Positions 846 to 59,995 of a stretch of DNA of 64,000 bases are shown in pieces (the first letter of the stretch is position 1; each line of letters begins with the position of its first letter). Position numbers and translations under genes: made by a program. The notes under the pieces were generated by a model. That model saw only the letters and a list, made by a program, of their open reading frames with translations. It had not been told where the DNA came from and did not search any database. This DNA is from Rickettsiales bacterium (GTDB lineage: Bacteria > Pseudomonadota > Alphaproteobacteria > Rickettsiales > UBA8987), in the NCBI GenBank assembly GCA_965222525.1, contig OZ244955.1, positions 1,259,813-1,323,812 on the forward strand, in the 5' to 3' direction.

Positions 846-860
846 GCTTCATTCTCTACC

Positions 861-2543
861 CTAGGCAGCATACAAAAATGCTGACTGGGTTGCTATCTCG
901 TTCATTTGACGCCCAATTTCCTGCAGAAAGTCAGTAAAGTCAGGAAAATACTCGTTGGACAACACGCGTTCAAACATTAGGGCATTAACATACTCAAAGA
1001 AAGCAACTTCGTAAAATAACCTTTTGAAAACTGGATCATCAACGTCTTCTTTATACGCTGCCGCAATTTGTGGATGGTCAAGATTCACCTTAATGGTTCT
1101 TTCCGACTGCACGTAACGTGTTCGCCACTCATCTTTGCCTAAATGTTCTGCCTTAACGTGGAATCCACCACGCGGCCTGTTCTTTTGCTGTCCACCACCT
1201 GGGTTAGCGGTAGTTGTGGGTTCGTCCTCATTTTTCTCAAGCCCCTGCTTAAGTTCAGGTGGCGGAGCGTCAGTTTCCGGTGTTGGTTCAGGCTTCTCGT
1301 CACCGACCCTATCTGGCAGTAAAGGTTCGCCTGTTTCAGACGCAGGGATAATGGTGCCAGGAACTAGGAAGCTATCATCGTCACCTTCGGTGCTATCCGG
1401 GTCATTTGGCACAACGTCAGCACCACCAGATGAGAGAGCTTTCTTTGATTTAATGAGTTCAGATCGAAATTGGTTGAAGTGCTTATTGATAACCTCACTA
1501 ACTTCTCCTTCGATTCGGCGAAACTTCTTAGCCTCTTCTGATTTACGCTCCTCTTTTTTGCGCCGAACTAATTCTTTTCTAATCTCTTCGACCGCACCAG
1601 AGATAAACCCATAAAGCATCCGTACTAATTGATTGCTGGCATTCAGTTGTCCACTGCGGGAAGAGTCAAATGCCGGGGGGTCTTCTTCCTTATCAAGGTT
1701 AGGGACTTCGATAGTTCCAAATATATATTCCGCACAGTCTTTGCCCTCACTTCCTGCCAAGGTTATTTCGTGTACTTGGTTTGAAGAAATGATTTTCACA
1801 CCTTGTTGATTGCTTTCAAGCGGAATACCAGAAACCTTTATGCAAAGAGTTACATTGCCGAGTAACTTTGCAACCTCGGGGTCTGGTGTGAAGTCTCTTT
1901 CAAAAGCTGCAGCGGGTTCTTGGTACTCACACTTTGAGCCATTAACATAGACACTACAGTTTGCGGGCCACCCAATTAGGTTTTGCTCAATGTAACCGAC
2001 GATCGGTTTTTCCTTAATCTTTTTGAAATCTTTGAAGAACTCAGTAATCGTGACTATTGTACGGTTTGGTTCCTTGGTTTTCTCATTCGTAACGATTTCA
2101 CTTACGGGGACTCCCTTATCTTTTCCTATATATGCCTTAACATCGTCCTTTTTCAGTTCTACCACGTTTCTTAGGCCGTTTCGTACGGTGTCAATCTGCA
2201 AGCTGTTGGCGATTGCGAAAGCAGCAGATTTTCCTGTTCCGAACATTCCACGGCCAATACGTCCTTGTTTGCGCTCAAGGTTTTCCGCGTGCATGGTAAA
2301 GAAGTGCTGTAGTCCAGCTCTATCCATCCCCATGCCATTATCAATGATCTCTATTTTGCTGGTGGTGATATTGACGTCTACCCTGGGGTTAACGCTGTTG
2401 TCTTGGTATTGGAGGCCATTCGCAACGTATTCCCATATTACATTCTTTGGGTGTTTAAAGCCCTCGGCGTTGTGTATGAGATCACGACATACATCGCTCT
2501 TTAACTCTATATGTGGCAGGGCCGCTGTATTGCTAGTTGCCAT
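861..2543 (-). CDS. GHKL (HATPase_c, MutL/MORC-like) ATPase
   Basis: N box WEYVANG, G1 DNGMGM, G2 GRGMFGTGKSAA, acidic/Pro-rich linker and C-terminal KVNLDHP. No nuclease motif recognised. Confidence 0.85.
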   Translation of the reverse strand: MATSNTAALPHIELKSDVCRDLIHNAEGFKHPKNVIWEYVANGLQYQDNSVNPRVDVNITTSKIEIIDNGMGMDRAGLQHFFTMHAENLERKQGRIGRGMFGTGKSAAFAIANSLQIDTVRNGLRNVVELKKDDVKAYIGKDKGVPVSEIVTNEKTKEPNRTIVTITEFFKDFKKIKEKPIVGYIEQNLIGWPANCSVYVNGSKCEYQEPAAAFERDFTPDPEVAKLLGNVTLCIKVSGIPLESNQQGVKIISSNQVHEITLAGSEGKDCAEYIFGTIEVPNLDKEEDPPAFDSSRSGQLNASNQLVRMLYGFISGAVEEIRKELVRRKKEERKSEEAKKFRRIEGEVSEVINKHFNQFRSELIKSKKALSSGGADVVPNDPDSTEGDDDSFLVPGTIIPASETGEPLLPDRVGDEKPEPTPETDAPPPELKQGLEKNEDEPTTTANPGGGQQKNRPRGGFHVKAEHLGKDEWRTRYVQSERTIKVNLDHPQIAAAYKEDVDDPVFKRLFYEVAFFEYVNALMFERVLSNEYFPDFTDFLQEIGRQMNEIATQSAFLYAA

Positions 2544-3126
2544 TCGCTTCCTCCTTAATCACTCTTTTTCCCAGTTCCTTTAGTGCATGGTGCGCGTCAT
2601 CACTGTTATCGAAGAGATTTTGGAACTGGGTTATTTTCTGTTCCCTAGCCTTACCTTGGATGTATTCGTTAATTCGGAACAAGTTTTCTAACTCTTTGCG
2701 TGTAATGCTATCTCCATTCCCGGAATGAAATTTTTGGTAGGCTGGCTCACCAAGAATTCGTTTCTTTTCCTTGTTGATCCAAGCCCTTTCCTTTTGTGAG
2801 AGCCTTGTTTCCTTGCTGCCTTCAGCCGTCAGTAGGTGCTTGTTTTCATCAACAAACTTAATTCCCTCTTCCGTCAGCATGTAGCCTTTTTCCGGAGTGC
2901 CAAGTGCTAAGCCACCTTTGTCCTCTTTCCTTGCATCAGATAGCCAACTAACAATTAACCGGTCAGAGATATAATCCCTTTTTCTCCAGCGGTATCTTCC
3001 GGGCACGATTTTATCCGCCTCTATAGCAATATCTTCTAGCTGCGCTTGCTGAGTTCGACCTCCTGCAACGTAGATTGCTAAAGCCATTATCTGGACATTG
3101 TTGAGGTCTTTGATACTAGCAGGCAT
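2533..3126 (-). CDS. Hypothetical protein with probable winged-helix domain
   Basis: 197 aa with a wing-like GYMLTEEGIKFV. Overlaps both neighbouring genes (translational coupling). Confidence 0.6.
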   Translation of the reverse strand: MPASIKDLNNVQIMALAIYVAGGRTQQAQLEDIAIEADKIVPGRYRWRKRDYISDRLIVSWLSDARKEDKGGLALGTPEKGYMLTEEGIKFVDENKHLLTAEGSKETRLSQKERAWINKEKKRILGEPAYQKFHSGNGDSITRKELENLFRINEYIQGKAREQKITQFQNLFDNSDDAHHALKELGKRVIKEEANGN

Positions 3127-3347
3127 TATTTTAACTCGAATTTTTTGTTTGATTGTTTAGTTGAGAAGCGCTGCTTGGACTTCCGTAATTCTTCTCCTAG
3201 CGTAGCGTAAATCTTCTCAATATCCTCGTTAGAGTAGTCGTAGTTTGACCTGTTTGAGAGGTTTCCGATAAGCTGTATATATTTCAGCGCGTTGTTCACA
3301 CGGTTGGTTGCAAGCCGGGTAAACTTATCTCTTGGGGTTTCCTTCAT
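3126..3347 (-). CDS. Small basic helical protein, first gene of operon, possible regulator
   Basis: 73 aa KFTRLATNRVNNALKYIQLIGNLSNRSNYDYS. GGA-type RBS upstream; TAATG overlap with next gene. Confidence 0.65.
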   Translation of the reverse strand: MKETPRDKFTRLATNRVNNALKYIQLIGNLSNRSNYDYSNEDIEKIYATLGEELRKSKQRFSTKQSNKKFELK

Positions 3348-3383
3348 AATTGATTATCCTGCTAAATAGATGTCGTATGGTGT

Positions 3384-3426
3384 AGGCTACGCAATAATAT
3401 TGTTCGTGTCAACGTAATATTGCGTA
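3384..3426 (-). promoter_or_regulatory. sigma70-like promoter overlapped by an inverted-repeat operator
   Basis: Minus strand TTGACA-17-TAGCCT. Arms TACGCAATA (3388-3396) and TATTGCGTA (3418-3426) lie between divergent genes. Confidence 0.5.
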
Positions 3427-3458
3427 CATTTATCAAATATAGGTAATATTATCAATAT

Positions 3459-4160
3459 ATGGACGAAAAATACAGAAATATAGCGATATTTAGGAAAAGA
3501 ATTCTGGCTTGGTACAGGGCTGAGGGTCGTATGTTTCCGTGGCGAGAACAGGCAAGAAGCGATTATGAAAAGATTGTGGCAGAGGTTCTACTACAGAGAA
3601 CCAAGGCCGAGACCGTTGCCAAGCATTACGGCGATTTTCTGCAAACCTTCCCCGATTGGAAGCACTTAGCGGATGCGCCGGAAGAGCATATCGAACAAGC
3701 CCTCAAACCCTTGGGCTTGTACAAGCAAAGGGCCGGGGTTTTTAAATGTCTCTCACAAGCCATCATGCAAATGGAAGGGAATACGCCTTCCAAGCGTGCC
3801 CATATAGATAAGCTCCCCGGGGTCGGGCAGTATATTGCCAATGCTGTAGAGTTGATTTGTCATGGCAAGCGAAGACCGCTTATAGATGTGAACATGGCTA
3901 GGGTGCTGGAGCGCGTATTTAGACCAAGAAAGCTCGTTGATATTCGGTATGACCCGTACTTACAGGAATTGTCAAAGAAGGTGGTAAACAGCCCGTATGC
4001 GCGGGAGATTAACTTTGCGATTCTGGATTTTGCAGCAAAGGTTTGTAAGTCGAAAAATCCTCGCTGTGAAATATGCCCATTTACGAGATATTGCAGTTGG
4101 TATAATCAGGCAAGCGCCACGGCAGCTTCTCTTGGAGGTGTAACTGAGAACGTGGTTTGA
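3459..4160 (+). CDS. HhH-GPD [4Fe-4S] DNA glycosylase, MIG-type (T:G mismatch)
   Basis: VLLQRT, HhH LPGVGQYIA with Tyr at the MIG-diagnostic position, FCL CKSKNPRCEICPFTRYC, no MutT-like C-domain. Adjacent to a C5 MTase. Confidence 0.75.
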   Translation: MDEKYRNIAIFRKRILAWYRAEGRMFPWREQARSDYEKIVAEVLLQRTKAETVAKHYGDFLQTFPDWKHLADAPEEHIEQALKPLGLYKQRAGVFKCLSQAIMQMEGNTPSKRAHIDKLPGVGQYIANAVELICHGKRRPLIDVNMARVLERVFRPRKLVDIRYDPYLQELSKKVVNSPYAREINFAILDFAAKVCKSKNPRCEICPFTRYCSWYNQASATAASLGGVTENVV

Positions 4161-5578
4161 TAGTTGTTTTCCTGGGTTGACGCGGTGGTGAATAGAATTT
4201 CCGCAATCTTTTCGCCAATGGCTTTAGCAAGTAAAGGTGGAACCGCATTACCAACTTGCGTGTACTGGGGAACCTCAAATTTGCGTCTGTTGCCACCAGT
4301 GGTCTCTTTCGAGCGAAAGACAAAAGTATCGGGAAAGGACTGTAGTCTAGCCATTTCCCTTATTGTCATGGTTCTCGGCTTTGCTGGGTGTACAAAGTCA
4401 TCCGGTAGGCTAAGCACAGTTGGGGAAGGACTACTCCAACTGAGGCAGCGTTGACTGTGTTTCTTCGTTTTTAACTCCAGAATTAACGTAGCCAGCTCCT
4501 CGGGAGTATGGGCAAGCACCTCCTTGTCCGGCGAGACTGCCGGGTAAGTGGCCTTTTCTAGTAAGCTAGTTATTTCCTCGGGTGAGATAGTATCTTTGGA
4601 GGCTAGGGTGATAATTTTTGAAGGCACTTCTTGCTTATCAAGATATTGTATTAGGCGAAAACGTTTCACGATTTTCTCTTCATGGTTCCTGAGCCGGTGA
4701 TTGGGTAATTTGCTGTTATCTCTGTTTTCAAACGGAAGATTTAGACCGGTAGTGTAATTCCTCATTAAGTAAGCAAACTCACCCTGAGCTGTTCCGTATT
4801 TCTTATGTTCTTGGTTGATGGTATAGCCCCGGTTTCCTATGTCCCACAGCGCATCACGCACAGTTCTAAAGTTTTGTAGTGCTGGGACAGGGGCAAGGAG
4901 TGGGCTTTTTGAAGCAACCTTTTCTTGTGCAAAGCTAGATTTCCAGAACATGGGAGCAGTTGAAATACCGGCCTTCCTCGCAACGTCCATCCTGACTGCT
5001 ACTAACATAACCCTAGGTCGGTTCTGAGGTATTCCAAAGTGAGCAGCATCAAGCTCCAGTGGCTGAACTGCATACCCGGGGGGGATTTCATGAATTGCTT
5101 GGATAAGCTGTTTTACAGGCGTCTCTATACCGTGCTTGGTAAACATTTTGCGGATGCCAACCACGTTCTCCATGATAACCGCCTTGGGGCGGACAGCTTG
5201 AACAAATTTAAGGAAAAGCCACGGTAGCTTGTTTCTTTCATCGTGAGGATCTCTCCTGCCTGCTACAGAAAACCCCTGACAAGGTGGGCCACCTGCAACA
5301 AGGTCTATTTCAGAACCTTTAAGTTTGTCCATAATTGCAGGGTTGGAAATAACCTGCTGTATGTCACTTACCATTAATTTTTGGGCAAATTGTTTTTCTG
5401 CTGAGAGCGATAAGAAGTTATCCCAGTCATCACTGTCTTGGATGGATCGAATAAAGTTGTGATAATACGTCTCTGCAGCCATGGGGGACTTCTCAACAGC
5501 AAGCTCAAGCTCAAAGCCTGCACTGGCCAAGCCAAGCGACAGTCCTCCACATCCAGCAAAAAGATCAATATATTTCAT
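4106..5578 (-). CDS. dcm: DNA (cytosine-5)-methyltransferase
   Basis: Motifs DLFAGCGG, GGPPCQGFS, ENV, PQNRPRV, QVGNAVPP. Confidence 0.95.
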   Translation of the reverse strand: MKYIDLFAGCGGLSLGLASAGFELELAVEKSPMAAETYYHNFIRSIQDSDDWDNFLSLSAEKQFAQKLMVSDIQQVISNPAIMDKLKGSEIDLVAGGPPCQGFSVAGRRDPHDERNKLPWLFLKFVQAVRPKAVIMENVVGIRKMFTKHGIETPVKQLIQAIHEIPPGYAVQPLELDAAHFGIPQNRPRVMLVAVRMDVARKAGISTAPMFWKSSFAQEKVASKSPLLAPVPALQNFRTVRDALWDIGNRGYTINQEHKKYGTAQGEFAYLMRNYTTGLNLPFENRDNSKLPNHRLRNHEEKIVKRFRLIQYLDKQEVPSKIITLASKDTISPEEITSLLEKATYPAVSPDKEVLAHTPEELATLILELKTKKHSQRCLSWSSPSPTVLSLPDDFVHPAKPRTMTIREMARLQSFPDTFVFRSKETTGGNRRKFEVPQYTQVGNAVPPLLAKAIGEKIAEILFTTASTQENNYQTTFSVTPPREAAVALA

Positions 5579-5727: not shown

Positions 5728-5960
5728 TTAGAACTGGATTTTTATGTTCAGTTCCGGGGCTTAAGAACCTCTCGCAAGTCGGCAGTAGCACCTGCCGTTA
5801 CCAAACTGCTGCTATCTCGACTTACGTCGGGGTGGCGGCGTTATACAACAGCCGCTCGCGGTAAAAGCGCTGCGGTCATGCTTGCGTGACTTCTTAACAC
5901 CCCGGCACCAGTGCGAAATCGCTGGTGCCGTTTTGTTTTAACCAAACAAAGGGGTTGTTA
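5728..5960 (+). ncRNA. Structured leader RNA, C4-antisense/ash-like (copy A)
   Basis: CCGGGGCTTAAGAA pairs with TTCTTAACACCCCGG. Several internal hairpins covary with copy B. Confidence 0.6.
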
Positions 5961-5963
5961 GTC

Positions 5964-6284
5964 ATGAATGAATACAGTCTTTGGGCGGACTTGCTCAACA
6001 AATTCCACACTTCGCCAGAATGGATACAGGTGCTATGGTTACTGGCCGTACCGATGCTCCTGTTCGGCCTGTGCTGGTGTATAAAGGAGGTGCTGGTTGC
6101 TTTTGCTAGAAGGCGGGAGGATGCGAAGGGTGATCTTCTGTACAGCATCTACCGAAACAGTGACAACGAATTGCTGGTTTATCGCCATGCAGAAGCGTTG
6201 GAGCAGGTTTCTACTGGCAATATGATACTTCTTCCTGCCACGGAGAAGCCAAAGGAAATAGTGAAAGAAACTGCCAAGCTATAG
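5964..6284 (+). CDS. Small membrane protein downstream of the leader RNA
   Basis: MNEYSLWADLLNKFHTSPEWIQVLWLLAVPMLLFGLCW with one TM segment. Truncated paralog at 17522. Confidence 0.7.
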   Translation: MNEYSLWADLLNKFHTSPEWIQVLWLLAVPMLLFGLCWCIKEVLVAFARRREDAKGDLLYSIYRNSDNELLVYRHAEALEQVSTGNMILLPATEKPKEIVKETAKL

Positions 6285-6296
6285 GGATAGCTTGTG

Positions 6297-7532
6297 CTAT
6301 CCTGTATATGCTTCCTGTAGCTTCGAGAGGGCTTGATGTCCATCTCTCACCGGGTGGCTATAATACGAAAGCGTCACGCTGGGGTCTTTATGGCCAACGA
6401 TCTGTGCCACCAATGGCACCTCGATCCCCTGCGCTTGCAAGATGGAAACCACCGCGTGACGGGCGGCATGGGTGGTCGTGTATTTGACGCCATGCTCTGC
6501 TAATTTCTCAAAAGCCGGAACCCACACGCGCTGCCTGAAATTGCTGTACAGCAGCACACCTCCACCGACCTTCTTGATTGGCCATGGGCCTTTCGCACCT
6601 TGACTCGGGAATACCAATTCCAGATTTCCGTTGCGACGGGGGCAACGTACGCGCCATTCCAGAAGCCATTCACGCAACAGCGAGTTCATCGGGATGAGCC
6701 GGTCGCCTGATTCAGTCTTCGTGAACTCGCAGATTTTGCCATTCTTCTCCAAGGAGCGGTGGATATGGATCGTGTTGTCCTCGAAACTGATATCGTCCCA
6801 GTGCAGTGCCAACTGCTCGGAAATCCTCGTGCCGGTCAGGAATCCCCACGCGACGTACAGGCCCCATTTTGAATCCTCGCGCATGACACGGAGCACTGTG
6901 CTGATTTCATCGGGGGAGAGAATGACCTTCTTAGTCTTTGGCGGACTCTTGGTCAATCTACGGGGCATTTTGGGCGTCCGCACCCCGAGGTCTTCTTCCA
7001 CCATGCACAGGATAGCATGAAGCCGCTGCATGGCACGGTTAGCGGAGTAATGGCCGACATGCTCGATCAGCTCGTTATGCCAACTGCGAATCCGCGCCGT
7101 CGTTAGCTTGTTCACTTTGACGTTGCCAAGCATGGACTTCAGCGATGAACCATCCGGCATATCACCCGTAAGTGCGTATTCTCGCCGCTGACGCATATCC
7201 GCCCCGATCAGCAGGGGGCCGACCAAGTAGCTTCGGTAGGTAATCAACCCCTTGTAGGTGGTGGATTTGATGCTGTGCTTCTTGTTTTCTACCCAGTAAT
7301 CGTAACATTCCTCCAGCGTTGGAACCTGCTTCTCATCGCAGAGCGTACCCTGTTCCAATTCGATCATGATGCGCTTCTGCTCTGCAATGGCTTCCTTCTT
7401 TTTGCGGAAGTAGCTTTGCCTCCGCTTGCCAGTCTCCGGGTCGGGGTAATTGACGGCATACTGGACATATTTGCGGATGCTTCCGTCCTTCAGTTTTCGC
7501 TTCTTCTGCTGGGTTTGTATGGTGACGTTCAT
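6297..7532 (-). CDS. int: Tyrosine recombinase/phage integrase
   Basis: TGTRISE, HAARH, VGH and catalytic Tyr in YYSH; N-terminal arm-binding-like domain. Start at MNVTIQ after an AGAGGAG RBS. Confidence 0.92.
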   Translation of the reverse strand: MNVTIQTQQKKRKLKDGSIRKYVQYAVNYPDPETGKRRQSYFRKKKEAIAEQKRIMIELEQGTLCDEKQVPTLEECYDYWVENKKHSIKSTTYKGLITYRSYLVGPLLIGADMRQRREYALTGDMPDGSSLKSMLGNVKVNKLTTARIRSWHNELIEHVGHYSANRAMQRLHAILCMVEEDLGVRTPKMPRRLTKSPPKTKKVILSPDEISTVLRVMREDSKWGLYVAWGFLTGTRISEQLALHWDDISFEDNTIHIHRSLEKNGKICEFTKTESGDRLIPMNSLLREWLLEWRVRCPRRNGNLELVFPSQGAKGPWPIKKVGGGVLLYSNFRQRVWVPAFEKLAEHGVKYTTTHAARHAVVSILQAQGIEVPLVAQIVGHKDPSVTLSYYSHPVRDGHQALSKLQEAYTG

Positions 7533-7809
7533 AATTGATTCTCCTCTCTGGTTAACGCCAGCCTGAACGCAGGCCAACATCCCAGAAAATCACAGCGAAA
7601 ATCTCCACACAATATTGGACGTGCAACCCTTATTGTAGACGCAAAAGTAGACGGACAGGGCCAGATAGGAGAAAAGCCCCGTCCGTCTTGACAGAAACGC
7701 CACTGGGCGAAGGTGACGTTCACATGCTTATGCTTCTGTATCTCAATACCTCGGTGTTCGAGTCTAAAAGTATTCATGTTTCTCATTCCATTATTCCGGC
7801 GTTAATTCC

Positions 7810-8035
7810 TGAAAATTTTAATTTTTAAAACGAGCTTAAAAGCCTAAAAGTTTAAAAATCCGAGCTGTCATTTTGTCACGTCACGTCAGCCCTCTTTGAG
7901 GGAACCCGTTAGCCTAACTCTGACTGCTTTTTTTCGTTTCCATACAATCCACATGGGAAGAAAGTGAGAAATGGGTAGCGCTGGCCTCGGATTTGCTCAT
8001 AACCCTATGACGTGACATGACATCGTGACGGTCAC
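7810..8035. other. Putative replication origin with iteron-like repeats
   Basis: AT-rich tract, then GTCACGTCACGTCA and an inverted TGACGTGACATGACATCGTGAC array at the 3' end of the primase-helicase gene. Confidence 0.45.
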
Positions 8036-10395
8036 ATCCCTTCGTAATCCATCTTCACATAATCATTGGAAAGATGAGATGCAGGTAACCATATTGCTAA
8101 TGAACGTACGCTGCCGGAGAAGCGCTTTTGTTTCTCTTTTCTGGCTCCCTGCACCCGCTGCAAGGCGCTTACCCATGCACCGCCATCCCACAGGGTATCT
8201 TTAAATATTTTTCTGATACCCGGGTGAGAATTGGCGACAAGAAACCCGTCACCTGTCCAACGAATACCCCAGTCTTCCAACTCATTTTTGATGAAAGTAT
8301 AGTCTTCCCCGTTTGGGTGAGCCTCGTATTTAATCATTGCGAGATTCGCGCCTACACTACGATCACTGATGCGGTGGCCAAGAAGCATATTCAGGCATTC
8401 CACGGCATCATCTTCTTCATGGGCTTCCGCCAATTCATTGATAAGTGCAGTATGTTCGCCAAGCAGCTCGTGGCCATCTTCCTCGGTCATTTCCCTCTGG
8501 TGAAGCATTACCCATGCTGCTGCCATAAGAGAAGCCATATTCAATGCATGACGGCTCTCGCAGGGAGGAAATACGCGTTGCAGAGTTTTGATAGCTTTCA
8601 GTATGTAATCCGTATTTTTAATAACCTGCTTGCACCAATTAGGCCCGACATCATCCAACGCATGACTCATTTCAGCAATGCGACTGCTGACAGTCTTATC
8701 GTTGGCGTGTTTGTGGAGTTTTAAAACCACGATACGCGAGCGGTCTGCAGCCGTTACCATAAAGGGGTTGATTGCACCCATGAGAAAACAGGAGCGAATA
8801 CAGAATTCCATGGCCTTTCCGTCCGGCGTTCCGCGAGCAATACTGTATTTAGCAGAAGAAGCGCTACGAATGAGCTTGATGACGGATTTCATCCTACCGA
8901 CATTCTGGTCGCTTTCAAATTCATCCAGAATAACGGGACGGCTATCCGGCCCGGTTTTCTGTCGAATGCCAGCCTCTGTGCTTTGACCATCAAGGGCAAT
9001 GCCGACCGGTTCGAGTAGGTTCATCAACGCTAGGATGATCGTAGTTTTACCTGCGTTCTTGGGGCCGCTGATGAAGATATGTGGCCTCCAATCCACCACC
9101 CCGCAAATGACCGCAAGGGCCGCCCAACCAAGCAGCAAATATGCTTCAGAAGGTGAACTCCAGTTGAATTGCTGGAAAAGTTCGAGGACTATTTTGGCAT
9201 CTATATCCGCCTCCTTTTCCCCTCGTGCCTCCAGCGGAAGATGACATACATAAATATACTTTGAATCCTGTGGTGGTTTATCGCCCCAGTTGATTACGAT
9301 TGCGCGGTTACTATCCATCCATACGCCGCGCCCGCGCACTCTTGAGGTGTCAAAACCACCCTTGCTACGACATAACTGCATCATGCTGTCCGCTGCATCC
9401 CGGCAATCTATGCCGATGATTTGGCCTTTCATATTTCGCTTTGGGAAGTTGGTGAGCCAAAAGTGCATGGGAGCCATGTTCAGTAGCGTGCCTTCTGTCA
9501 TGAGACGATTGGAGCTTTCCACCAAGAGCAGCGAGCGCATTTGATCGAGAAATACGTATCGTCCATCTTCCAGATAGCCAAGTGGTAGTGGCCCAGTATC
9601 ATCCGGAGCGTATTCCCCGCGTGATTTCAGGCCAAGCCCCTTTTCCTTAGCGCTTTCGAGCATCTCCAAGGTTTCTTCGGCGGTATTTCCCTTGTAGTCC
9701 TGGTGAAAAAGCGCGTTGAGGCAGTCTGCCACCCATTTAAGATCATCAGTAATATGGGCGATCCCTGAAGCAGTCAGGGCCAGCATTAACTCATGCCCCT
9801 TGACGGTTGCTCCACTTTCAACAATTTCCCATGCGGCTTCGTATTTTACGACACGCTTGATTAGCTCGTATACGACAGCATCCAGAACCGGCAGGTTGTT
9901 TTGCTCAATATCCAACAGGGGAGTTTCGTCCCAAACATACGCATTGCCATTTGGATGAATCGAAGGGGGAATGACGATCATCCCGGTGTCTATCATCATC
10001 TCCACACCGAAGGCTTTCTGGCCTTTGGCTTTCAACTTAGCACTTTTGAGTCCGTTATCCGCCTGACAGAAAGCGGTAAGTCCCTTGCTACCAATTTTTC
10101 CTGAAACGTAGTTACGAAGTACGGTTTTGATGAATTCGGAGAATCCGGGGTGATCGACATCTATAGCAGAAAACAATCTGCCGTTTCTCAAACGGGTGCC
10201 CGTGGCAAGGCCAATATTGCCCGCACCATATTTTTGTTTCAGCGCGTCAATATACTCTTCGCTTGGAAGTTCAGGGACATGCTTGTTCCAATCAGGATTA
10301 GCCGCTCCTTTTGCTTTCTTACGAACGGCGACAGGACTATAACCAGCTTCAATATAAGCATCTGCCCAGTCTTCATATATGCGTTGTGCTACCAT
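8032..10395 (-). CDS. Bifunctional primase/polymerase fused to a P-loop helicase
   Basis: GNIGLATG, IDVD, IPPSIHPNG..YVW (Prim-Pol); Walker A GPKNAGKT and Walker B VILDEFE. Confidence 0.88.
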   Translation of the reverse strand: MVAQRIYEDWADAYIEAGYSPVAVRKKAKGAANPDWNKHVPELPSEEYIDALKQKYGAGNIGLATGTRLRNGRLFSAIDVDHPGFSEFIKTVLRNYVSGKIGSKGLTAFCQADNGLKSAKLKAKGQKAFGVEMMIDTGMIVIPPSIHPNGNAYVWDETPLLDIEQNNLPVLDAVVYELIKRVVKYEAAWEIVESGATVKGHELMLALTASGIAHITDDLKWVADCLNALFHQDYKGNTAEETLEMLESAKEKGLGLKSRGEYAPDDTGPLPLGYLEDGRYVFLDQMRSLLLVESSNRLMTEGTLLNMAPMHFWLTNFPKRNMKGQIIGIDCRDAADSMMQLCRSKGGFDTSRVRGRGVWMDSNRAIVINWGDKPPQDSKYIYVCHLPLEARGEKEADIDAKIVLELFQQFNWSSPSEAYLLLGWAALAVICGVVDWRPHIFISGPKNAGKTTIILALMNLLEPVGIALDGQSTEAGIRQKTGPDSRPVILDEFESDQNVGRMKSVIKLIRSASSAKYSIARGTPDGKAMEFCIRSCFLMGAINPFMVTAADRSRIVVLKLHKHANDKTVSSRIAEMSHALDDVGPNWCKQVIKNTDYILKAIKTLQRVFPPCESRHALNMASLMAAAWVMLHQREMTEEDGHELLGEHTALINELAEAHEEDDAVECLNMLLGHRISDRSVGANLAMIKYEAHPNGEDYTFIKNELEDWGIRWTGDGFLVANSHPGIRKIFKDTLWDGGAWVSALQRVQGARKEKQKRFSGSVRSLAIWLPASHLSNDYVKMDYEGM

Positions 10396-10412
10396 GATAA
10401 ATCTCCGGGTAT

Positions 10413-10613
10413 TTATGATTGTTGCATTGCCTTGAGGATGTCCGAGCGCCGGACATACTTCTTGGCATTGAGTAATGAGTAAGTGGGAATCAACCCGGCA
10501 TTGGCCGCTCGGCGTATTTTCCAAGCGGGCAAGCCTAATTGTTCTGCCGCTTCGTCATAGGTCAGCAGCGACTCAGGCTGATCGCGTTGGTGGTTGTTTG
10601 GATTTTCGTTCAT
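10413..10613 (-). CDS. Excisionase-like HTH protein
   Basis: LLTYDEAAEQLGLPAWKIRRAANAGLIP...YVRRSDI. Confidence 0.85.
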   Translation of the reverse strand: MNENPNNHQRDQPESLLTYDEAAEQLGLPAWKIRRAANAGLIPTYSLLNAKKYVRRSDILKAMQQS

Positions 10614-13689: not shown

Positions 13690-14136
13690 ATGCCCAGAAA
13701 AAAGAAAGAAACCGAAAAGATCGACGAGGCCAGCATACTGGAACAGTTGCTTCAGGAATTGGAAGAAGAGATCGACGCCAAGGAAGGCAAGGTCAGTCGG
13801 AAAATGACCAAGGGTCAGGCGCTCATCAAGAGCATGGTCAATGAAGCCCTAAAAGGCGATCAGCGAATGATGACCAATGTATTGAAGTTTATCGAGAAGC
13901 TGGATGCACTACAATCGGCCAAGAAAGAGGAAACTGCCGCTGATAATCAGGAACTGGATAAGGTCGATTGGGAAATAATGTTACGGTATTATTGGCGATA
14001 TCGGCATCATCTGGAGTTAGAATGGGAGCGGATGAAGAAGGAAAATCCTGGCGCGTTCAAGGGGGAGTGGACACGAATCGATATGAAAGATGCGCCATGG
14101 TACGAGGCAATTTACGGCTCTGAAGGAGCTGACTAG
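13690..14136 (+). CDS. DUF5681-like protein (N-terminal motif apparently missing)
   Basis: RKMTKGQALIKSMVNEALKGDQR resembles genes that usually follow the ParB-MTase in alphaproteobacterial satellite-like elements. Confidence 0.55.
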   Translation: MPRKKKETEKIDEASILEQLLQELEEEIDAKEGKVSRKMTKGQALIKSMVNEALKGDQRMMTNVLKFIEKLDALQSAKKEETAADNQELDKVDWEIMLRYYWRYRHHLELEWERMKKENPGAFKGEWTRIDMKDAPWYEAIYGSEGAD

Positions 14137-14924
14137 GCGGCGAAATAGCGTTTTCCATAGCCGTGTACGACATTGACGATGTTCTTGCCTTCCACCTGAT
14201 TGCCGCCGCATAACCCGCAGGTCACACATTTGGCGCGCCGGTTTGTCAGATCATGGGCCGGGCAGAGGATTTCTCCCTCGGTAATCTCCGACAACTCCTT
14301 GGCCACGCGGAAAGTACGCCAGCCTTTCTTCCAAGCTTCCTGCGCCTCCTCCAGCGTGTCGGCGGAAAACATGTAGAGGTCGGTACGGTACTCAACATTG
14401 CCGAGATCAGTGAAATGGCTGTAGCCAGTATAGCCTGCTGCTTCCGAAATCAGGCTATCCCAGATATAAGAAGGTACGGCAGCAGGATCACCATATGCGC
14501 CCAACCGGACTTTCCTATCCCTACCAATGGCGGCCAGTTCACCGTGTCCCTTCGCTACCGGGTATTTCCCGGCCTTATAACCGCGCCAAATCGTCAATGG
14601 CGCATTGCGGACGAGTACATAGCAGGTACGATTCCTAGCACTCTGCGCTTTCGGGTTTTCAACAGGCTCCCCTTTTAGCTTGCAATTTCCGCAGATGGAA
14701 TAATCTTCACCGGAGCGGTTCGCCGTTACCGGGTCGATATCCTCCCGCAGGACGAAGGTCTGTACCATGTCACCGGTCTTGATGTTCTGCGAGTGATGAA
14801 TGGCAATGACGATAATCGGCTTGCCGTCAATCAGTGACGGCCCGTTGAAAATCAGGCTTCCCGTCGTCTTGGCTGCCTTGCCGTTTGGCTTGGTAATTTC
14901 TTGATTGAACAGGTCTTTTTGCAT
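14133..14924 (-). CDS. Cys-rich phage-type protein (putative Fe-S, Gp88-like)
   Basis: NIKTGDMVQT, SICGNC, CYV, RLGAYGDP, GYSH, ILCPA, CVTCGLCGG. Confidence 0.6.
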   Translation of the reverse strand: MQKDLFNQEITKPNGKAAKTTGSLIFNGPSLIDGKPIIVIAIHHSQNIKTGDMVQTFVLREDIDPVTANRSGEDYSICGNCKLKGEPVENPKAQSARNRTCYVLVRNAPLTIWRGYKAGKYPVAKGHGELAAIGRDRKVRLGAYGDPAAVPSYIWDSLISEAAGYTGYSHFTDLGNVEYRTDLYMFSADTLEEAQEAWKKGWRTFRVAKELSEITEGEILCPAHDLTNRRAKCVTCGLCGGNQVEGKNIVNVVHGYGKRYFAA

Positions 14925-14956
14925 ACACGCAAAAGTCACAGAAAAGCGTATTCCTG

Positions 14957-15158
14957 TCAATCTATTGTGAGATTACTTTCGTGATCTACGCCACGTCTAC
15001 AGTTCTTGGCCTATCACCCGATACAAACGAATGATACCAAGTTCACCCGGTTACGTTCCACAGCAAATGTCATACGCCGTTTTCCACGCCATAGCAGGCG
15101 GTAATGAGGTGGAATCTACGATAACTGCTTGCAATGGATGAACATCCGGATTAGCACT
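14957..15158 (-). pseudogene. Degenerate, 5'-truncated copy of the ORF at 17834-18187
   Basis: Reads LIRMFIHCKQLS*IPP...**AKNCRRGVDHESNLTID with in-frame stops; cut at the att site. Confidence 0.65.
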
Positions 15159-15203
15159 CTCCGAAGGCGGGGGTCGTGGGTTCGAATCCCGCCGGGTCCG
15201 CCA
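15159..15203 (+). tRNA. 3' fragment of tRNA-Arg(CCG), island att site (not a complete tRNA)
   Basis: CTCCGAAGGCGGGGGTCGTGGGTTCGAATCCCGCCGGGTCCGCCA: anticodon loop, T arm and CCA end. No D arm or 5' acceptor strand upstream. Confidence 0.85.
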
Positions 15204-15242
15204 TTTTTAGGCATTTTAGGGTATGCAAACACGGGGCTGTGT

Positions 15243-15977
15243 TTACTTTTCGGGAAAAGCCAGCGCCAGCAATTCGGTAACGGCTAACTGCGTATCCTGT
15301 TTTACATCGTCAATATGCTTCTTTGTAGCGTTATAGCGTCTGTTATGTGCCGAGTTATCTGCAAGCTTTTTGAATGACTTTAAAGCCCCAATAGTTGTAC
15401 GTCCCACATTGAGTTGTGTATCTTTTTCTAGCACGTTAAGCAGTCCAGCAAACATCATAAAGTGGCCGTCGTGCCCTTTTAGCTCTGTATCTCTTCCAGC
15501 CGCCTCGTATATCTCGATAATCAATGTTTCTAAGAGCCTTCTAAGCATCACTGCACAACAATCAAATAGAGAGGCGTCGTAGCTAGCATTAACCTGTAAT
15601 ACCACTTTCTTGATATATGATCTGGTATTTTGGAAATCGCCACGTTGTAGGAGGCTATTAGATTTCTTAACCGGTTTGTTTTCGAGTAAGTGCAAATATT
15701 TGGAGTCTAATTCCCTAATTGCGGTCGGGTTTAGTCGAAATCCTTTCTCTTGTTTGCCACGTACAGTCCGTTTGTCTTTTGCTAGCCTGCTTTTATCACG
15801 GGACCTATTTACTGCATTAAACCCTGCTTCTTCAATTTCATCGCAAAGTTGAGAAAATTCAATATATGTGTTGTTACTGCTATGCTGATGCCACCACAAT
15901 AAAACAACGAATCTATCAATGACTTTAAGGTCATGTATCTCTTCCAAGTATAGAAAATCTTCCAACGGTTTCGTCAT
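15243..15977 (-). CDS. wHTH + HEPN (DUF4145-like) protein
   Basis: YDASLFDCCAVMLRRLLETLII...KKLADNSAHNRRY; N-terminal wing-like GFRLNPTA. Confidence 0.7.
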   Translation of the reverse strand: MTKPLEDFLYLEEIHDLKVIDRFVVLLWWHQHSSNNTYIEFSQLCDEIEEAGFNAVNRSRDKSRLAKDKRTVRGKQEKGFRLNPTAIRELDSKYLHLLENKPVKKSNSLLQRGDFQNTRSYIKKVVLQVNASYDASLFDCCAVMLRRLLETLIIEIYEAAGRDTELKGHDGHFMMFAGLLNVLEKDTQLNVGRTTIGALKSFKKLADNSAHNRRYNATKKHIDDVKQDTQLAVTELLALAFPEK

Positions 15978-15987
15978 AAAGATTTCC

Positions 15988-16605
15988 TTACTGAATAGGT
16001 TGTTTTGTACAGAATGCCTTCACCACAGCATCAGCCTGTAATACGTTAGCAGGGTTCAGTTTAATAACATCGCCATGCTTAGCTAACCAAGGGCACTTAT
16101 TAAAGCTTCTGCTAGGGTTCTGAGGTTCGGCTCCAAGCTCGTGTAAAATCTTTTTCACCTGAGTGTATGTACAATCACCAAGCTTCGCATATTTGAACCA
16201 TTCCACCAGTAGAGTGGAGACAATAATGACTGACGTCAGTGCATTGTTTCCCCTCTTGGGTGTGTTGGCTTTAAAGGCTGCCCAGTAGTGCTGATCAATA
16301 TGCAAAAACGGTTCTTCGTGAGATGGGTAGCAAGCACCGATTATTTCATCGGACTCTATGGCAACAGCATTAGCCCACCTTACAACAGCATCGCCATTGC
16401 CTGAATCTGGGGAAGGTGGCAAATGAGTGGGGGCAGAGGAATTCTCCCCATTTTCGTTGTCAGTTTTTACGTGTGTGATCAACTTTGGCTTCTCGGTCTT
16501 CTTCGCTCCTTGCATTACACTATTCCAAAGTACTGGGTCGTCTGACTCTGCTACAAGAACATCGTTGGCATAGAGTTTGACCACGAGATTTGCTTTTAGT
16601 TCCAT
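15988..16605 (-). CDS. Hypothetical protein with probable C-terminal wHTH
   Basis: Strong AAGGAGG RBS; TYTQVKKILHELG..PQNPSRSF...IKLNPA. Confidence 0.65.
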   Translation of the reverse strand: MELKANLVVKLYANDVLVAESDDPVLWNSVMQGAKKTEKPKLITHVKTDNENGENSSAPTHLPPSPDSGNGDAVVRWANAVAIESDEIIGACYPSHEEPFLHIDQHYWAAFKANTPKRGNNALTSVIIVSTLLVEWFKYAKLGDCTYTQVKKILHELGAEPQNPSRSFNKCPWLAKHGDVIKLNPANVLQADAVVKAFCTKQPIQ

Positions 16606-16618
16606 TGTCCTCTCCTCC

Positions 16619-17146
16619 TTATTCAGCAGCACCAGAAATCATTTCTTCGACTTTCTTCAATCCTGCATGGCTGAGTTTGTATGTCTTTCGCGCTTGTTGG
16701 CTGCCGCCGCTCTTCTTAAGTTGTAGAATCAAGGCAGGTTTAGTGCTCTTCAAGGAGTCTAGTGCCTTGGTAATATTAGCAATTTTATGACCAAGATGGG
16801 TGAGCTCTTTATTGGCCGCTTGAGATGCAAAATTTTCTGCCCCTTCACAGGCCTGCAGCCAATATCCAGAAACAAGAGCTTTTTCTGCTGTAGTGGTAGG
16901 GTTTGCTAGGTCATACAACTCTGCAAAGGTTTCGATACTGGCTGTTTGTCGGACAGTTGTTGTCGAAACGTTATTATCTTGGGTGTCATTCTGTTCGTCA
17001 GTATCAAAATTATGTGTTGGCGCATCGATTTCTAGCCGGTTTACGATATACTGGACAACACGGCTACGTGCGCTTTCGTCGAGGGGTGATAAGGCGTCAT
17101 GAATAGTCTTCATAGCATCAAATTCGGCATCGTTAGATTGGGTCAT
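16619..17146 (-). CDS. Hypothetical protein with probable C-terminal wHTH
   Basis: AAGGAG RBS; ALVSGYWLQ...NITKALDSL...YKLSHAGLKKVEEM. Confidence 0.65.
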   Translation of the reverse strand: MTQSNDAEFDAMKTIHDALSPLDESARSRVVQYIVNRLEIDAPTHNFDTDEQNDTQDNNVSTTTVRQTASIETFAELYDLANPTTTAEKALVSGYWLQACEGAENFASQAANKELTHLGHKIANITKALDSLKSTKPALILQLKKSGGSQQARKTYKLSHAGLKKVEEMISGAAE

Positions 17147-17264
17147 GTATCATTCTCCTTCATGATTTATGCACTTGATATATGCACCAAGTCTTGAAGT
17201 TCAAGAGGTAAATGCAAATATTTTTGTAATAACCAATTATCGGCTTGATTATTAACGCAATAAA

Positions 17265-17294
17265 TTGACCGAGTAGTATTCGGCGTGATAGATT
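17265..17294 (+). promoter_or_regulatory. Promoter of leader RNA (copy B)
   Basis: TTGACC-18-TAGATT with extended TG, matching copy A. Confidence 0.55.
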
Positions 17295-17299
17295 CCGTG

Positions 17300-17520
17300 C
17301 AGAGCCAGTATGTTGGCTCCGGGGCTTAAGAACCTCTAACGAAAGCGGCAGGGCACCTGCCGTCACCAAACTGCCACCCTACGCCATGCGTCGGGGTGGC
17401 GACGTTATGTCCAGGCGCGAGCTAAAAGCGTCGCGGTCGTACTTTCGTTCGACTTCTTAACACCCCGGCACCAGTGCGAAATCGCTGGTGCCGTTTTCGT
17501 AACCAACGAAAGGGTGTCAT
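17300..17520 (+). ncRNA. Structured leader RNA, C4/ash-like (copy B)
   Basis: Same core as 5728-5960 with compensatory stem changes. Confidence 0.6.
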
Positions 17521-17521
17521 T

Positions 17522-17686
17522 ATGAATGAATACAGTCTTTGGGCAGATTTGCTCAATAAATTCCACACTTCACCAGAATGGATACAGGTGTTATGGCTGC
17601 TAGCTGTGCCACTGCTTCTTTTTGGTCTCTGCTGGTGCATGAAAGAGGTGCTGGTTGCCTTCGCTCGACGGCGGCAATGGCAATGA
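17522..17686 (+). pseudogene. 3'-truncated copy of the small membrane protein gene
   Basis: Near-identical to the 5964 gene up to FARRR, then joins the antisense Cys-rich gene fragment. Confidence 0.75.
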
Positions 17687-18032
17687 CGATAATCGGCTTG
17701 CCGTCAATCAGTGACGGCCCGTTGAAAATCAGGCTTCCCGTCGTCTTGGCTGCCTTGCCGTTTGGCTTGGTAATTTCTTGATTGAACAGGTCTTTTTGCA
17801 TACACGCAAAAGTCACAGAAAAGCGTATCCCTGTCAATCTATTGTGAGATTACTTTCGTGATCTACGCCACGTCTACAGTTCTTGGTCTCTCGCCCGGTA
17901 CGAGCGAATGACACCAAGTTCATCCGGTTACGTTCCATGGCAAATGTTATCCGCCGTTTTCGAAGCCGTAGTGCGGGGTAAAGAGGTGGAACCCATGATA
18001 ACTGCTTGCAATGAATAAACATCCGGATCAGC
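17677..18032. repeat. Direct repeat of 14800-15155
   Basis: First ~210 bp almost identical (one mismatch seen); remainder clearly more diverged. Confidence 0.9.
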
Positions 18033-18187
18033 CCTGCGTTGATAGCATCCAGCATTTGTCGATACTCGACATTCTTAAGATCACGGTATTTCTTATAGGC
18101 ATTACGATCCTTCCATTTGTCTGTAATATGGCGGATATAATCATTATCTGGCCATTCTGGTTTAAGTTGCTTCTGTCTTCTGGCCAT
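17834..18187 (-). CDS. Basic hypothetical protein
   Basis: Open frame; pseudogenised paralog at 14957-15158. Confidence 0.5.
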   Translation of the reverse strand: MARRQKQLKPEWPDNDYIRHITDKWKDRNAYKKYRDLKNVEYRQMLDAINAGLIRMFIHCKQLSWVPPLYPALRLRKRRITFAMERNRMNLVSFARTGRETKNCRRGVDHESNLTID

Positions 18188-18526: not shown

Positions 18527-18982
18527 TCAATAATTTCTTCCCACGTTTTTCCGTTTCTTCTGAAATATTCTACTGTTGGTCCGTATTCCTTCCTCGTTGA
18601 AGGCAAAACCAGAAGCGATAATGCTATTATACACCTGTGTAATACCGGTTTCATTGGCGTGATCGGCGAATAACCTTCCGACCGCTTGCATGTTCGGAAA
18701 TGCCTGAGAGGCGGTTGGAAAATGATCGCGTGTTGTCAAGACAGCAGCAAAAGGAAGCACGAAATCTGTCTCAGCAATTCTTTGACGGAAATATGTTGAG
18801 TTTCGGTAATAGCGAGTGGCAATATCAATGTCTCTGACTTCCTTGCCGAGCAGTGCATCCCGCACACATCCACCGATAAACCGCGCCTGAACATCCTCAC
18901 CGCCATCATGCAGCGCATCCATAACCCGCACAGTCTCCACCGTACTCATCCACTCCTGCTGTTTTATTTTCTTGGGTTTCAT
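18527..18982 (-). pseudogene. cca: N-terminal fragment of CCA-adding enzyme fused to unrelated sequence
   Basis: ARFIGGCVRDALLGKEVRDIDIAT; similarity stops at ~18815. Confidence 0.75.
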
Positions 18983-19052
18983 GGCCTGATTCATAATTGG
19001 CCATCATACTAGAAGCATTTTGATAAAAATCAATGGTGAGGTGCTACTAAAC

Positions 19053-24955: not shown

Positions 24956-25120
24956 ACGTGTCTACCGCTCCCCCCTTGAGGGGGAGCAGATGAGACAAGG
25001 GCTTTAGCCCGCAGTCGAGTCGTGGGGGTACTGATAACTGTTACTCCCCCCACCAATCGCCCGCACCCCTACGGGGTTTGGCTCTTGTACTCCCCCTCAA
25101 GGGGGGAGTGGTGGTCACGT
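24956..25120. repeat. Palindromic repeat family A, copy 1
   Basis: CTCCCCCCTTGAGGGGGAG...CTCCCCCTCAAGGGGGGAG; other copies at 57945 and 58833. Confidence 0.9.
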
Positions 25121-29979: not shown

Positions 29980-30040
29980 ATATTATATCACACATAGTGT
30001 TATATGCAAGGATTATCTACCAGACAGTACCGTCAAATTC

Positions 30041-30149
30041 GCTAGCATGCGGCGAAAATGACCGTTTTCGAGAACCGTACTGCAGCGTACTTTTGGGTAC
30101 GTGAAGCACGGAAGCGCAGAAAATGGTTATTTGCAGCCCATGATAGTAG
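30041..30149. repeat. RPE-like palindromic repeat family E, copy 1
   Basis: GAAAATGACCGTTTTCGAGAACCG...GCGTAC..GTACGTGA...GGAAGCGCAGAAAAT; copy at 47444. Confidence 0.85.
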
Positions 30150-43052: not shown

Positions 43053-43113
43053 TTTGGAACAAAAAACTCACTAGACTCTAGATTCTAGATTCTAGACTCT
43101 AACCACTAAAACT

Positions 43114-47394: not shown

Positions 47395-47443
47395 TGGTAT
47401 ATACCGGTTAGTACCAATAACGCAGGAATGTGTCTGTATTCAC

Positions 47444-47553
47444 GCTAGCATGAGCCGAAAATGATAGTTTTCGAGAACCGTAGCGCATCGTACTTTTTTC
47501 GTACGTGAGCAACGGAAGCGCAGAAAATTATCATTTGCAGGCCATGATAGTAG
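47444..47553. repeat. RPE-like palindromic repeat family E, copy 2
   Basis: Matches 30041-30149. Confidence 0.85.
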
Positions 47554-52751: not shown

Positions 52752-52870
52752 TTAGAGTCTGGAGTCTAGAATCTAGAGTCTAGAGTTTAGTGGCTAGTGA
52801 AAGGTGTCATCCCGAACCAAGTTCAGCATGACACCACTAGACTCAAGATTCTAATCACTAGCACTAGTAA
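52752..52870. repeat. CTAGA(C/T)T heptamer arrays flanking a collapsed family D repeat
   Basis: AGAGTCT/AGAATCT units; TGTCATCCCGAACCAAGTTCAGCATGACA at 52805-52832. Confidence 0.65.
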
Positions 52871-57828: not shown

Positions 57829-57944
57829 AAGGAGATAAAAATAATCATATTTCCACAAATTGCGAGTATTTTGTAACTTCCCCCTTTTATTTAACGAAAT
57901 AGGGGGTATATATAATTGTTACGTGCATGGCAGAAAATGAATGC

Positions 57945-58832: not shown

Positions 58833-59995
<1,163 letters not shown>

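Follow-up and report, generated by a model that had tools for sequence, protein, structure and literature searches.

RAZR (PD-T7-4) is described in passages of PMC13017515 as a DUF4145 HEPN ribonuclease (RNase) with catalytic residues R146 and H154 that brings about abortive infection by RNA cleavage. Parts of the published accounts also report shown roles against phage or plasmids for the DUF4145 defence proteins BxaP and Ishtar, and a table of the 2013 HEPN survey (PMC3710099, in part) has a helix-turn-helix (HTH) fusion among the DUF4145 architectures. Control of a HEPN protein by a winged helix is described, in excerpts of bioRxiv 10.64898/2026.07.14.738597, for Retron-Kva2 (type IX), in which a winged-helix protein binds a non-canonical HEPN, covers its active site, and mitigates its toxicity. 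In type IX retrons, according to portions of the same preprint and of PMC7736814, the HEPN lacks the canonical Rx4-6H motif and adjoins a separate winged-helix gene. As far as these excerpts go, Retron-Kva2 thus indicates that non-canonical HEPN sites can be active. Here we analyze a three-gene operon, G1-G2-G3, in a 64,000-nucleotide (nt) window of a Rickettsiales bacterium genome (GCA_965222525.1, contig OZ244955.1, positions 1,259,813 to 1,323,812), whose last gene is predicted to join a winged helix to a HEPN domain of the DUF4145 type. We interpret the operon, with a probability of roughly 0.55, as a small, self-contained toxin/immunity or abortive-infection-like module carried as cargo by a decayed integrative element.

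The genes lie on the minus strand of 15243-17146 and are numbered in their order along that strand:

16619..17146, minus strand: G1, an open reading frame (ORF) of 175 amino acids (aa)
15988..16605, minus strand: G2, an ORF of 205 aa from the ATG at 16605
15243..15977, minus strand: G3, an ORF of 244 aa

In the ORF list, G2 begins with a GTG (16632; 214 aa); the ATG at 16605 (205 aa), which gives the length of the database gene call P0121, is the likelier start. With this start, the gaps are 13 nt from the G1 stop to the G2 ATG and 10 nt from the G2 stop to the G3 ATG, in agreement with an earlier reading made from the letters and ORF translations of the window (hereafter, the sequence-only reading), which had noted three co-oriented genes with 10-13 nt gaps and strong ribosome-binding sites for the first two. 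These sites were confirmed as Shine-Dalgarno-like AAGGAG ahead of G1 and AAGGAGGAG ahead of G2, whereas G3 is preceded by a weaker AAGGAA. No terminator-like site was seen between the genes in a scan of the operon. Each gene is present as a single copy in the host genome, and, judged by the many database relatives of each, all three are real genes. The sequencing runs listed with this DNA are four DNA runs from one study, with no RNA run among them. Nothing above the cut-offs of Pfam, PADLOC 2.0, PHROGs, or NCBIfam gave G1, G2, or G3 a named family, and no description of the module was found in a literature search conducted largely without subscription journals; within these databases and the searched literature, the earlier statement that this is not a recognised named system stands.

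The candidate effector is G3, which has 402 relatives at E ≤0.001 among 1692 candidates (best non-self identity 57-58%) and is divided as follows:

15681..15977, minus strand: N-terminal winged helix of G3, residues 1-99 (model; wing strands 71-73 and 79-82)
15246..15632, minus strand: HEPN domain of G3, residues 116-244 (model and structural search)
15336..15371, minus strand: presumed active-site stretch of G3, K203-x3-D207-x3-H211-N212-R213-R214 (alignment A1; invariant or nearly so)

The AlphaFold2 model of G3, based on a 36-sequence alignment (A1), has a predicted local distance difference test (pLDDT) score of 93 and consists of a winged helix, a linker, and a helical domain. In the structural search, residues 13-99 resemble forkhead, kleisin, and MarR-type winged helices (Z ~8, 8.1-8.5). 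The top match of residues 116-244 was 2hsb (Z 12.6, root-mean-square deviation 2.9, 120 residues aligned), on a scale on which, as the tool warns, values below ~13 may reflect the arrangement common in helical bundles. Further matches of the same residues included 2q00 (Z 11.4), Roquin (11.1-11.2), 1ufb (10.1), AbiA (9.7-9.8), Csm6 (9.6-9.9), and sacsin (9.6), as well as the SO_3166 toxin (9.2), the 7ae2 toxin (8.4), and HepS (7.0), and TT1696 was also among the HEPN proteins that aligned. Foldseek itself returned no match to the G3 model at E ≤0.001; in a second look at its list, all of the first 13 rows that cover residues 116-244 were of the HEPN type. A G3 profile compared with the sequences of solved structures gave a chance match alone (E 1.1). 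At the sequence level, DUF4145 matches (E ≤0.1) occur in 22 of the 36 aligned G3 homologs (best 3.5e-6), and the G3 relative at one further locus (L118) matches DUF4145 at 31.6 bits (1.8e-7). Because the uniform list of HEPN folds combines with these DUF4145 matches, we judge the HEPN assignment to be firm, and G3 is predicted to be an N-terminal winged helix fused to a four-helix up-and-down HEPN domain. The HEPN/DUF4145-like domain that the sequence-only reading had placed in the last gene is thereby borne out; a missing HEPN fold had been named there as grounds for rejecting the idea, and the fold is instead strongly predicted.

Conserved polar residues of G3 gather in two places, on one helix (R146, R147, E150, and T151) and at the end of another (K203, D207, H211, N212, R213, and R214). 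The motif had been given as K-x2-D-x2-A-H, which requires correction: the conserved lysine is K203 rather than K204, and the stretch reads K203-x3-D207-x3-H211 followed by N-R-R. Across 79 full-length relatives, the K203 position holds Lys in 78 and Arg in one, the L118 protein (R-x3-N-x3-H). Lys in 78 of 79 relatives, the DUF4145 match of the Arg-bearing L118 protein, and the spacing of the catalytic pair in RAZR together argue that G3 is a DUF4145-type HEPN with Lys in place of the catalytic Arg, and by analogy we predict RNase activity with Lys replacing the canonical Arg.

RAZR is a close counterpart, in that it has a C-terminal divergent DUF4145-type HEPN in which R146 and H154 are spaced like K203 and H211 of G3. 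The two differ in that RAZR is encoded by one gene and has a Cys4 zinc finger at its N-terminus and a catalytic Arg, whereas G3 has a winged helix, a Lys, and nearly always an upstream partner gene; RAZR was absent from the rows shown by the G3 fold searches, and no PADLOC model matched G3. BxaP, Ishtar1, and HTH-DUF4145 proteins likewise join a DUF4145 HEPN to a variable second domain, as far as the published passages go, but they are single proteins with other partner domains, and the main-text passages describe no upstream winged-helix partner genes for them.

The partner next to G3 is G2, for which a word-based database search found only three relatives, and a full scan of 1.84 billion representatives found 289 representative clusters at E ≤0.001 (219 at 1e-10). 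Its AlphaFold2 model (34 sequences, alignment A3; pLDDT 84.3) shows a beta-hairpin and helix (residues 1-36), a disordered linker (38-66), and a helical plus winged-helix domain (68-200), the last part of which was searched separately:

15997..16296, minus strand: winged-helix domain of G2, residues 104-203 (model and wide structural search)

All 50 rows of this search hold a winged helix or a related DNA- or RNA-binding fold (best Z 6.0), mostly MarR-, PadR-, and forkhead-type regulators and subunits of the origin recognition complex (ORC), and six chains (2qvo, 5ocn, 6pcm, 5gvc, 3g3z, and 1tqi) match the winged helices of both G2 and G3. Foldseek gave E values of 0.1 or more throughout for G2. 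Both the model and the structural rows agree with the winged helix that had been proposed for this gene.

Several longer members of the G2 family were read by sequence. In P0333, P0350, P0353, and P0367, one or two extra winged-helix-like repeats follow the G2 part, P0358 differs in its C-terminal tail, and P0386 contains a long insert. These six proteins were considered as G2-G3 fusions and rejected, as no HEPN domain was found in them by sequence reading.

In having a separate winged-helix gene beside a non-canonical HEPN (here G2, 10 nt upstream of G3), the operon resembles type IX retrons, a likeness drawn from their description, and the winged-helix antitoxin of the retron HEPN is its nearest precedent. 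The retron, however, needs a reverse transcriptase and multicopy single-stranded DNA (msDNA), and its order is HEPN and then winged helix, whereas here G2 comes first and the effector itself has a winged helix. No RVT family was found among 21 neighbouring ORFs (3-24940 of the window), and no retron RNA was found in 1-24000, where Rfam gave two sub-threshold matches. HEPN-MNT pairs are also two-gene modules with a HEPN RNase toxin, and G3 superposes on 5yep, 6m6w, and 7ae8 (Z 8.5-9.2), but in these pairs the partner is a nucleotidyltransferase that AMPylates the toxin, and the toxin has the canonical R-x4-H. Pfam scans found no nucleotidyltransferase family in G1, G2, or their homologs, and the fold matches of G2 are all winged helices.

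G1 has 289 relatives at E ≤0.01 among 332 candidates, mostly 50-60% identical, and its alignment (A2) shows a conserved N-terminal helical stretch (~8-40), an acidic variable linker, and a conserved C-terminal domain (~68-175). When every sequence in A2 and A3 was scanned with Pfam, only scattered sub-threshold matches were returned. The C-terminal domain is linked by profile comparison to F2b, a second partner family of G3 relatives (91.5%, E 8.7e-7), and may, weakly, be read as a winged helix. The sequence-only reading had seen a similar wing-like segment in each of the three genes. In the models of G2 (strand 180-183) and G3 (strand 79-82), this segment forms the latter strand of a beta-hairpin wing and leads into a helix, and the G1 part of the claim depends on the profiles; one recurring wing-bearing domain across all three proteins is plausible on this basis.

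To place the operon among its relatives, one genome per species was scanned for G3 and the best 80 of 163 relatives were examined. At 37 of these 80 loci, in many phyla, the gene immediately upstream of the G3 relative, on the same strand, is of the G2 family, and F2b fills the partner position at another 28. No relation is detectable between the G2 family and F2b (E 0.26). A G1-like gene, a weak profile match, is in the partner position at a single locus (L072), and 14 loci have no classified partner. Four of these 14 (L035, L037, L057, and L069) start within ~70 nt of a contig end, which leaves no room upstream, and at another four (L059, L074, L075, and L080) the upstream ORFs fall into a single BLAST cluster, two members of which were scanned and gave DUF5343 above the cut-off (L074; 35 bits, E 2e-8) and below it (L059; 24.6 bits against a cut-off of 27). 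At L004, a G3 relative 51% identical to the G3 of the window has an F2b partner, which shows that partners are exchanged. Within the G2-G3 pairs, the pairwise identities of one protein track those of the other (matrix correlation r 0.66, 35 pairs; 0 of 2000 permutations reach this r), which fits co-inheritance of G2 and G3, although shared descent alone contributes as well. The conserved unit is the G2-G3 pair. The three families do not behave as the one fixed unit that the sequence-only reading had proposed: none of the 37 loci with G2-G3 has a G1-family gene and none of the G1 loci described below has a G2-family gene.

A metagenome scan gave the corresponding picture for G1, of which 80 loci among 308 relatives were examined and 79 had a clear G1-family ORF. 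These genes lead into the next gene with an 8-nt overlap (at many loci) or a short gap, and only a few gene sets follow. One set has a ~250-aa protein (cluster c1) with a conserved R-N-x-R-N-x2-H in its N-terminal half and a winged-helix-like C-terminus. Another has a ~270-aa protein with a CAP12/Pycsar TIR domain (two of two scanned, E ~1e-20), and a third has a middle gene of 115-235 aa and then a ~250-aa protein (cluster c0last), the N-terminus of which is linked to the G3 winged helix (profile 73.9%, E 2.8e-5) and the C-terminal part of which has R-N-x3-H. The middle proteins are linked by profile to F2b (81-99.6%) and to G1 (76.6%). At L118, the only one of the 79 loci with a G3 relative, a G1-family gene, a partner gene, and the DUF4145-type G3 relative follow in a row. 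Among the 36 loci with at least 1500 nt after G1, an effector-type gene lies within 1.5 kb downstream on the same strand at 32 (17 with a middle gene, i.e., three-gene forms, and 15 without) and is missing at four; as the effector classes were defined from the same loci, this count is descriptive rather than a test. The effectors at those loci are HEPN-motif proteins, TIR, and DUF4145, and no significant likeness links the three effector groups in their HEPN parts (E 0.36). Judged by sequence, the recurring architecture is a small winged-helix gene, an optional middle gene, and a winged-helix-effector gene, built from different families; the exact G1-G2-G3 trio was found in this window alone among the inspected loci.

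Two G1 loci carry further genes of note. At L136 (816-3806), a TIR-domain gene is followed by a gene for a 704-aa reverse transcriptase (RVT_1, E 2e-10), and at L090 (4374-5592, minus strand), the pair of G1 and effector is adjoined by two convergent ORFs of comparable sizes (161 aa and 247 aa) with no Pfam match.

Effector-associated domains of bacterial conflict systems follow an adaptor-domain logic. The G1 loci share with such adaptor systems, and with Pycsar and CBASS, a domain type common to neighbouring genes and interchangeable effectors behind a constant upstream gene. They differ in that no nucleoside triphosphatase (NTPase), cyclase, or other signal-generating enzyme is present here and in that the common domain is a winged helix. 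Swapping of effectors (HEPN-motif proteins and TIR) among relatives, as in immune systems, supports the immunity reading.

Under our interpretation of the operon as a toxin/immunity module, G3 would be the effector, a DUF4145-type HEPN that presumably acts as an RNase in the form of a dimer and is tethered to a winged helix. G2 would be its cognate, co-inherited restraining or sensing partner and G1 an additional winged-helix protein with an adaptor or regulatory role. While the cell is at rest, the partners would keep G3 inactive, either by winged-helix contacts or by their short N-terminal elements and acidic linkers, and would probably repress the operon as well. G3 would be released by a signal from an invader or when a labile partner is lost; it would then cut cellular RNA, and growth would stop. 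Toxicity of G3, its neutralisation by G2 or G1, and the trigger are proposed here by analogy, with Retron-Kva2, RAZR/BxaP/Ishtar, and the HEPN-MNT pairs as the models for the mechanism.

Several results weigh against this interpretation. G3 departs from the canonical Rx4-6H, with no Arg 5-7 residues before His211 and the invariant Lys203 eight before it; its own match to Pfam DUF4145 (PF13643; E 0.043, 14.3 bits) is below the cut-off of 23.1; and the HEPN-fold regulators MtlR and YggD match it at Z 7.3-7.6, a reminder that non-catalytic HEPN folds exist. Direct profile links between the winged helices are weak (trimmed profiles: G3 against the G1 C-terminal domain, E 9.5e-4, probability 22%; G3 against G2, E 2.4e-3, probability 12%, in register end to end). 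For c1 and c0last, the HEPN label comes from the motif and from a weak link to the Ymh family in Atlas (score 0.77), and no HEPN Pfam model matched any of the 16 effector proteins scanned at E ≤0.05. An iterative search from the single G1 sequence found no match among the 4844 ORFs of the 80 G3 loci, and the G1 profile added the weak match at L072, secondary matches to F2b partners, and one on the other strand 3.4 kb away. Because the single G1 sequence finds a match at 0 of 80 G3 loci and a G2-family gene is found at 0 of 79 G1 loci, membership of G1 in this unit rests on spacing and analogy. Defence-island enrichment, which had been put forward as a test, was not borne out for the G2-G3 pairs: their flanks (36 genomes, 128 ORFs) are mostly housekeeping genes that differ between genomes, and mobile or conflict genes (transposases, an HNH nuclease, a Schlafen-like helicase, and a phage-related protein) make up 7 of the 128 flanking ORFs, in 6 of 36 loci. 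Neither G3 nor G1 was found in IMG/VR viral contigs (pattern-based scan) or on 72,556 plasmids, and G3 was not found in phage records. A complex prediction for G2 and G3 (A3 and A1; scores of 0.04, 0.36, and 0.02 against a mark of 0.32, without controls) counts neither way.

The same features could be explained by a plain addiction module of the type II toxin-antitoxin kind that stabilises the element and has no defence role, with G3 as toxin, G2 as antitoxin, and G1 as transcriptional regulator, as in three-part regulator-antitoxin-toxin operons. Small, tightly spaced or overlapping genes (including the 8-nt overlap at many G1 loci), solitary two-gene modules amid housekeeping genes, and the position as cargo of an integrated element would all suit such a module, and Retron-Kva2, in the passages cited above, provides a winged-helix antitoxin to a HEPN. 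We nevertheless regard a pure addiction role as unlikely, since the exchange of effectors for a TIR of the Pycsar/CBASS kind and the proven defence roles of other DUF4145 proteins indicate immunity, and the lack of relatives on the 72,556 plasmids also counts against it, addiction modules being common there; the two explanations overlap and are hard to separate by sequence. It is more doubtful still that all three proteins regulate the element (e.g., its excision or immunity) by binding DNA, with the HEPN-like domain of G3 serving non-catalytic dimerisation or ligand binding, as in MtlR. The winged helices in all three proteins, the lack of the canonical Arg, and the MtlR/YggD-type HEPN-fold regulators among the structural matches of G3 are in keeping with this view, but the G2-G3 pair is found in 36 sampled genomes with mostly housekeeping flanks and no element to regulate, almost no variation is seen at His211, Arg213/214, and Arg146/147 across many phyla, and related modules have TIR or canonical R-N-x3-H proteins in the equivalent position.

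A different question is whether G2 and G3 function alone, with G1 as an independent gene, either a regulator or a remnant of another module, a possibility that is compatible with the toxin/immunity reading and to which we give some credence, although we lean against it. It draws on the fact that no G1-family gene lies just upstream at any of the 37 G2-G3 loci and no G2-family gene at any of the 79 G1 loci, and on the nature of the region, a mosaic with deletions. Against it stand the 13-nt gap, the strong ribosome-binding site, and the lack of a terminator-like site between G1 and G2, the position of G1-family genes ahead of winged-helix-effector genes at 32 of the 36 loci with enough downstream sequence, 17 of which have a middle gene, and the consecutive order of G1-family gene, partner gene, and DUF4145-type G3 relative at L118.

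That a HEPN-based toxin or immunity system can have a winged-helix partner is already known, and the most interesting aspects of this operon are the swapping of effectors and the Lys-for-Arg site. If the toxin/immunity interpretation is true, such modules would form a compact, widespread HEPN/TIR-based class over many phyla that PADLOC 2.0 does not detect, and the restraint of a non-canonical HEPN by a winged helix, so far described for one retron type, would extend to stand-alone modules. The G3 family offers a natural test of whether Lys can stand in for the catalytic Arg of HEPN RNases, and the interchange of HEPN-motif and TIR proteins behind one upstream family makes the role of the partner (sensor, antitoxin, or regulator) testable by swapping. 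A more speculative extension, which we offer tentatively and consider rather less probable than the module itself, is an undescribed immune superfamily in which one type of winged helix is common to one or two adaptor/sensor proteins and to an effector, and the effectors (three HEPN-type kinds and a Pycsar-type TIR) are exchanged. The winged helix would then serve in homotypic assembly or co-sensing, as death-domain-like adaptors do but with the ability to bind nucleic acid, and the HEPN with Lys for Arg would represent a new variant of the catalytic site. By their sequence relatives, the modules look small, patchily distributed, and horizontally moving, which favours the toxin/immunity interpretation; no G3 relative was found in 60 genomes related to the host, and the operon DNA was not found in E. 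coli genomes. Near G1, a mobile-element or conflict gene was seen at 11 of the 25 longer loci (SLATT, Fic [twice], VapE-like, DUF4365, HNH with IS1595, PIN, reverse transcriptase, ArdA, RelE/MqsA, and integrase with IS91).

The operon belongs to a region with two copies of an integrative element. An intact tRNA-Arg(CCG) lies ~1.3 kb to the left of the window (L173, 1469-1545), and the following features were assigned:

861-2543: ATPase, cargo of element 1, left of block X (family scan)
3459-4160: HhH-GPD protein, cargo of element 1, left of block X (family scan)
4106-5578: C5 methylase, cargo of element 1, left of block X (family scan)
5800-6125: block X of element 1, which precedes the integrase
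6297-7580: integrase of element 1
8032-10524: Prim-Pol primase of element 1, with further genes after it
14799-15158: block Y, at the right end of element 1
15160..15215, plus strand: displaced 3' tRNA-Arg fragment (anticodon loop to CCA), separated by 28 nt from the G3 stop and assigned as an attachment-site (att) remnant because it aligns with the intact tRNA-Arg(CCG)
17147..17362, minus strand: AT-rich stretch upstream of G1 that reaches to the repeated block, a presumed promoter/operator
17363..17680, plus strand: X', a second copy of X (repeat comparison), divergent from the operon
17676..18036, plus strand: Y', a second copy of Y, joined directly to X'

The displacement of the tRNA-Arg fragment from the intact tRNA indicates ~17 kb of integrated DNA between them. 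As X' is fused to Y', the integrase-to-primase part is gone from element 2, which, judged by these repeats, is a second, decayed copy of the element. Both copies carry differing genes to the left of X and divergent from it, and the operon is located between the att remnant and the conserved element block. This agrees with the sequence-only reading, which had put the operon in a variable cargo slot, where the first copy holds its methylase and ATPase genes (861-5578), divergent from a shared leader RNA. A consensus scan of 17147..17362 found no minus-strand promoter-like site above chance.

Some smaller observations concern the two elements. Block X has a match to sRNA-Xcc1 (RF02221; 5826-5914, plus strand; 46.3 bits against a gathering score of 53, E 1.9e-5) ahead of a small ORF and the integrase, and no such match was reported in X' (17363-17680). 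At 17553-17837 (minus strand), the first 54 residues of a 275-aa ORF (14133-14960) are duplicated and fused at ~17676-17680 to the truncated small ORF of X'; by this comparison, the fusion is the scar of the deletion that removed the integrase-to-primase part. The cargo of the first element (3-5578) comprises an RNA polymerase alpha C-terminal domain protein, a GHKL-type ATPase (HATPase_c_3), an HhH-GPD glycosylase-like protein, and a C5 cytosine methylase and may be a methylation-linked conflict island. Beyond element 2, a 155-aa ORF at 18527-18994 (minus strand) matches the head domain of poly(A) polymerase/CCA-adding enzymes over only 25 residues and is probably a gene remnant.

Repeats were also seen elsewhere in the window. 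A palindromic GC-rich intergenic repeat of ~70 + 70 nt, similar to repetitive extragenic palindromic (REP) sequences, occurs at 24956-25120, 57942-58168, and 58836-59008 (74-94% alike), and an intergenic repeat of ~110 nt at 30040-30149 and 47443-47553 (85-87% identity) is a possible shared leader or regulatory element. Inverted repeats of 41 nt made of TCTAGA-like units (43069-43109 and 52752-52792) surround a stretch of 9.6 kb.

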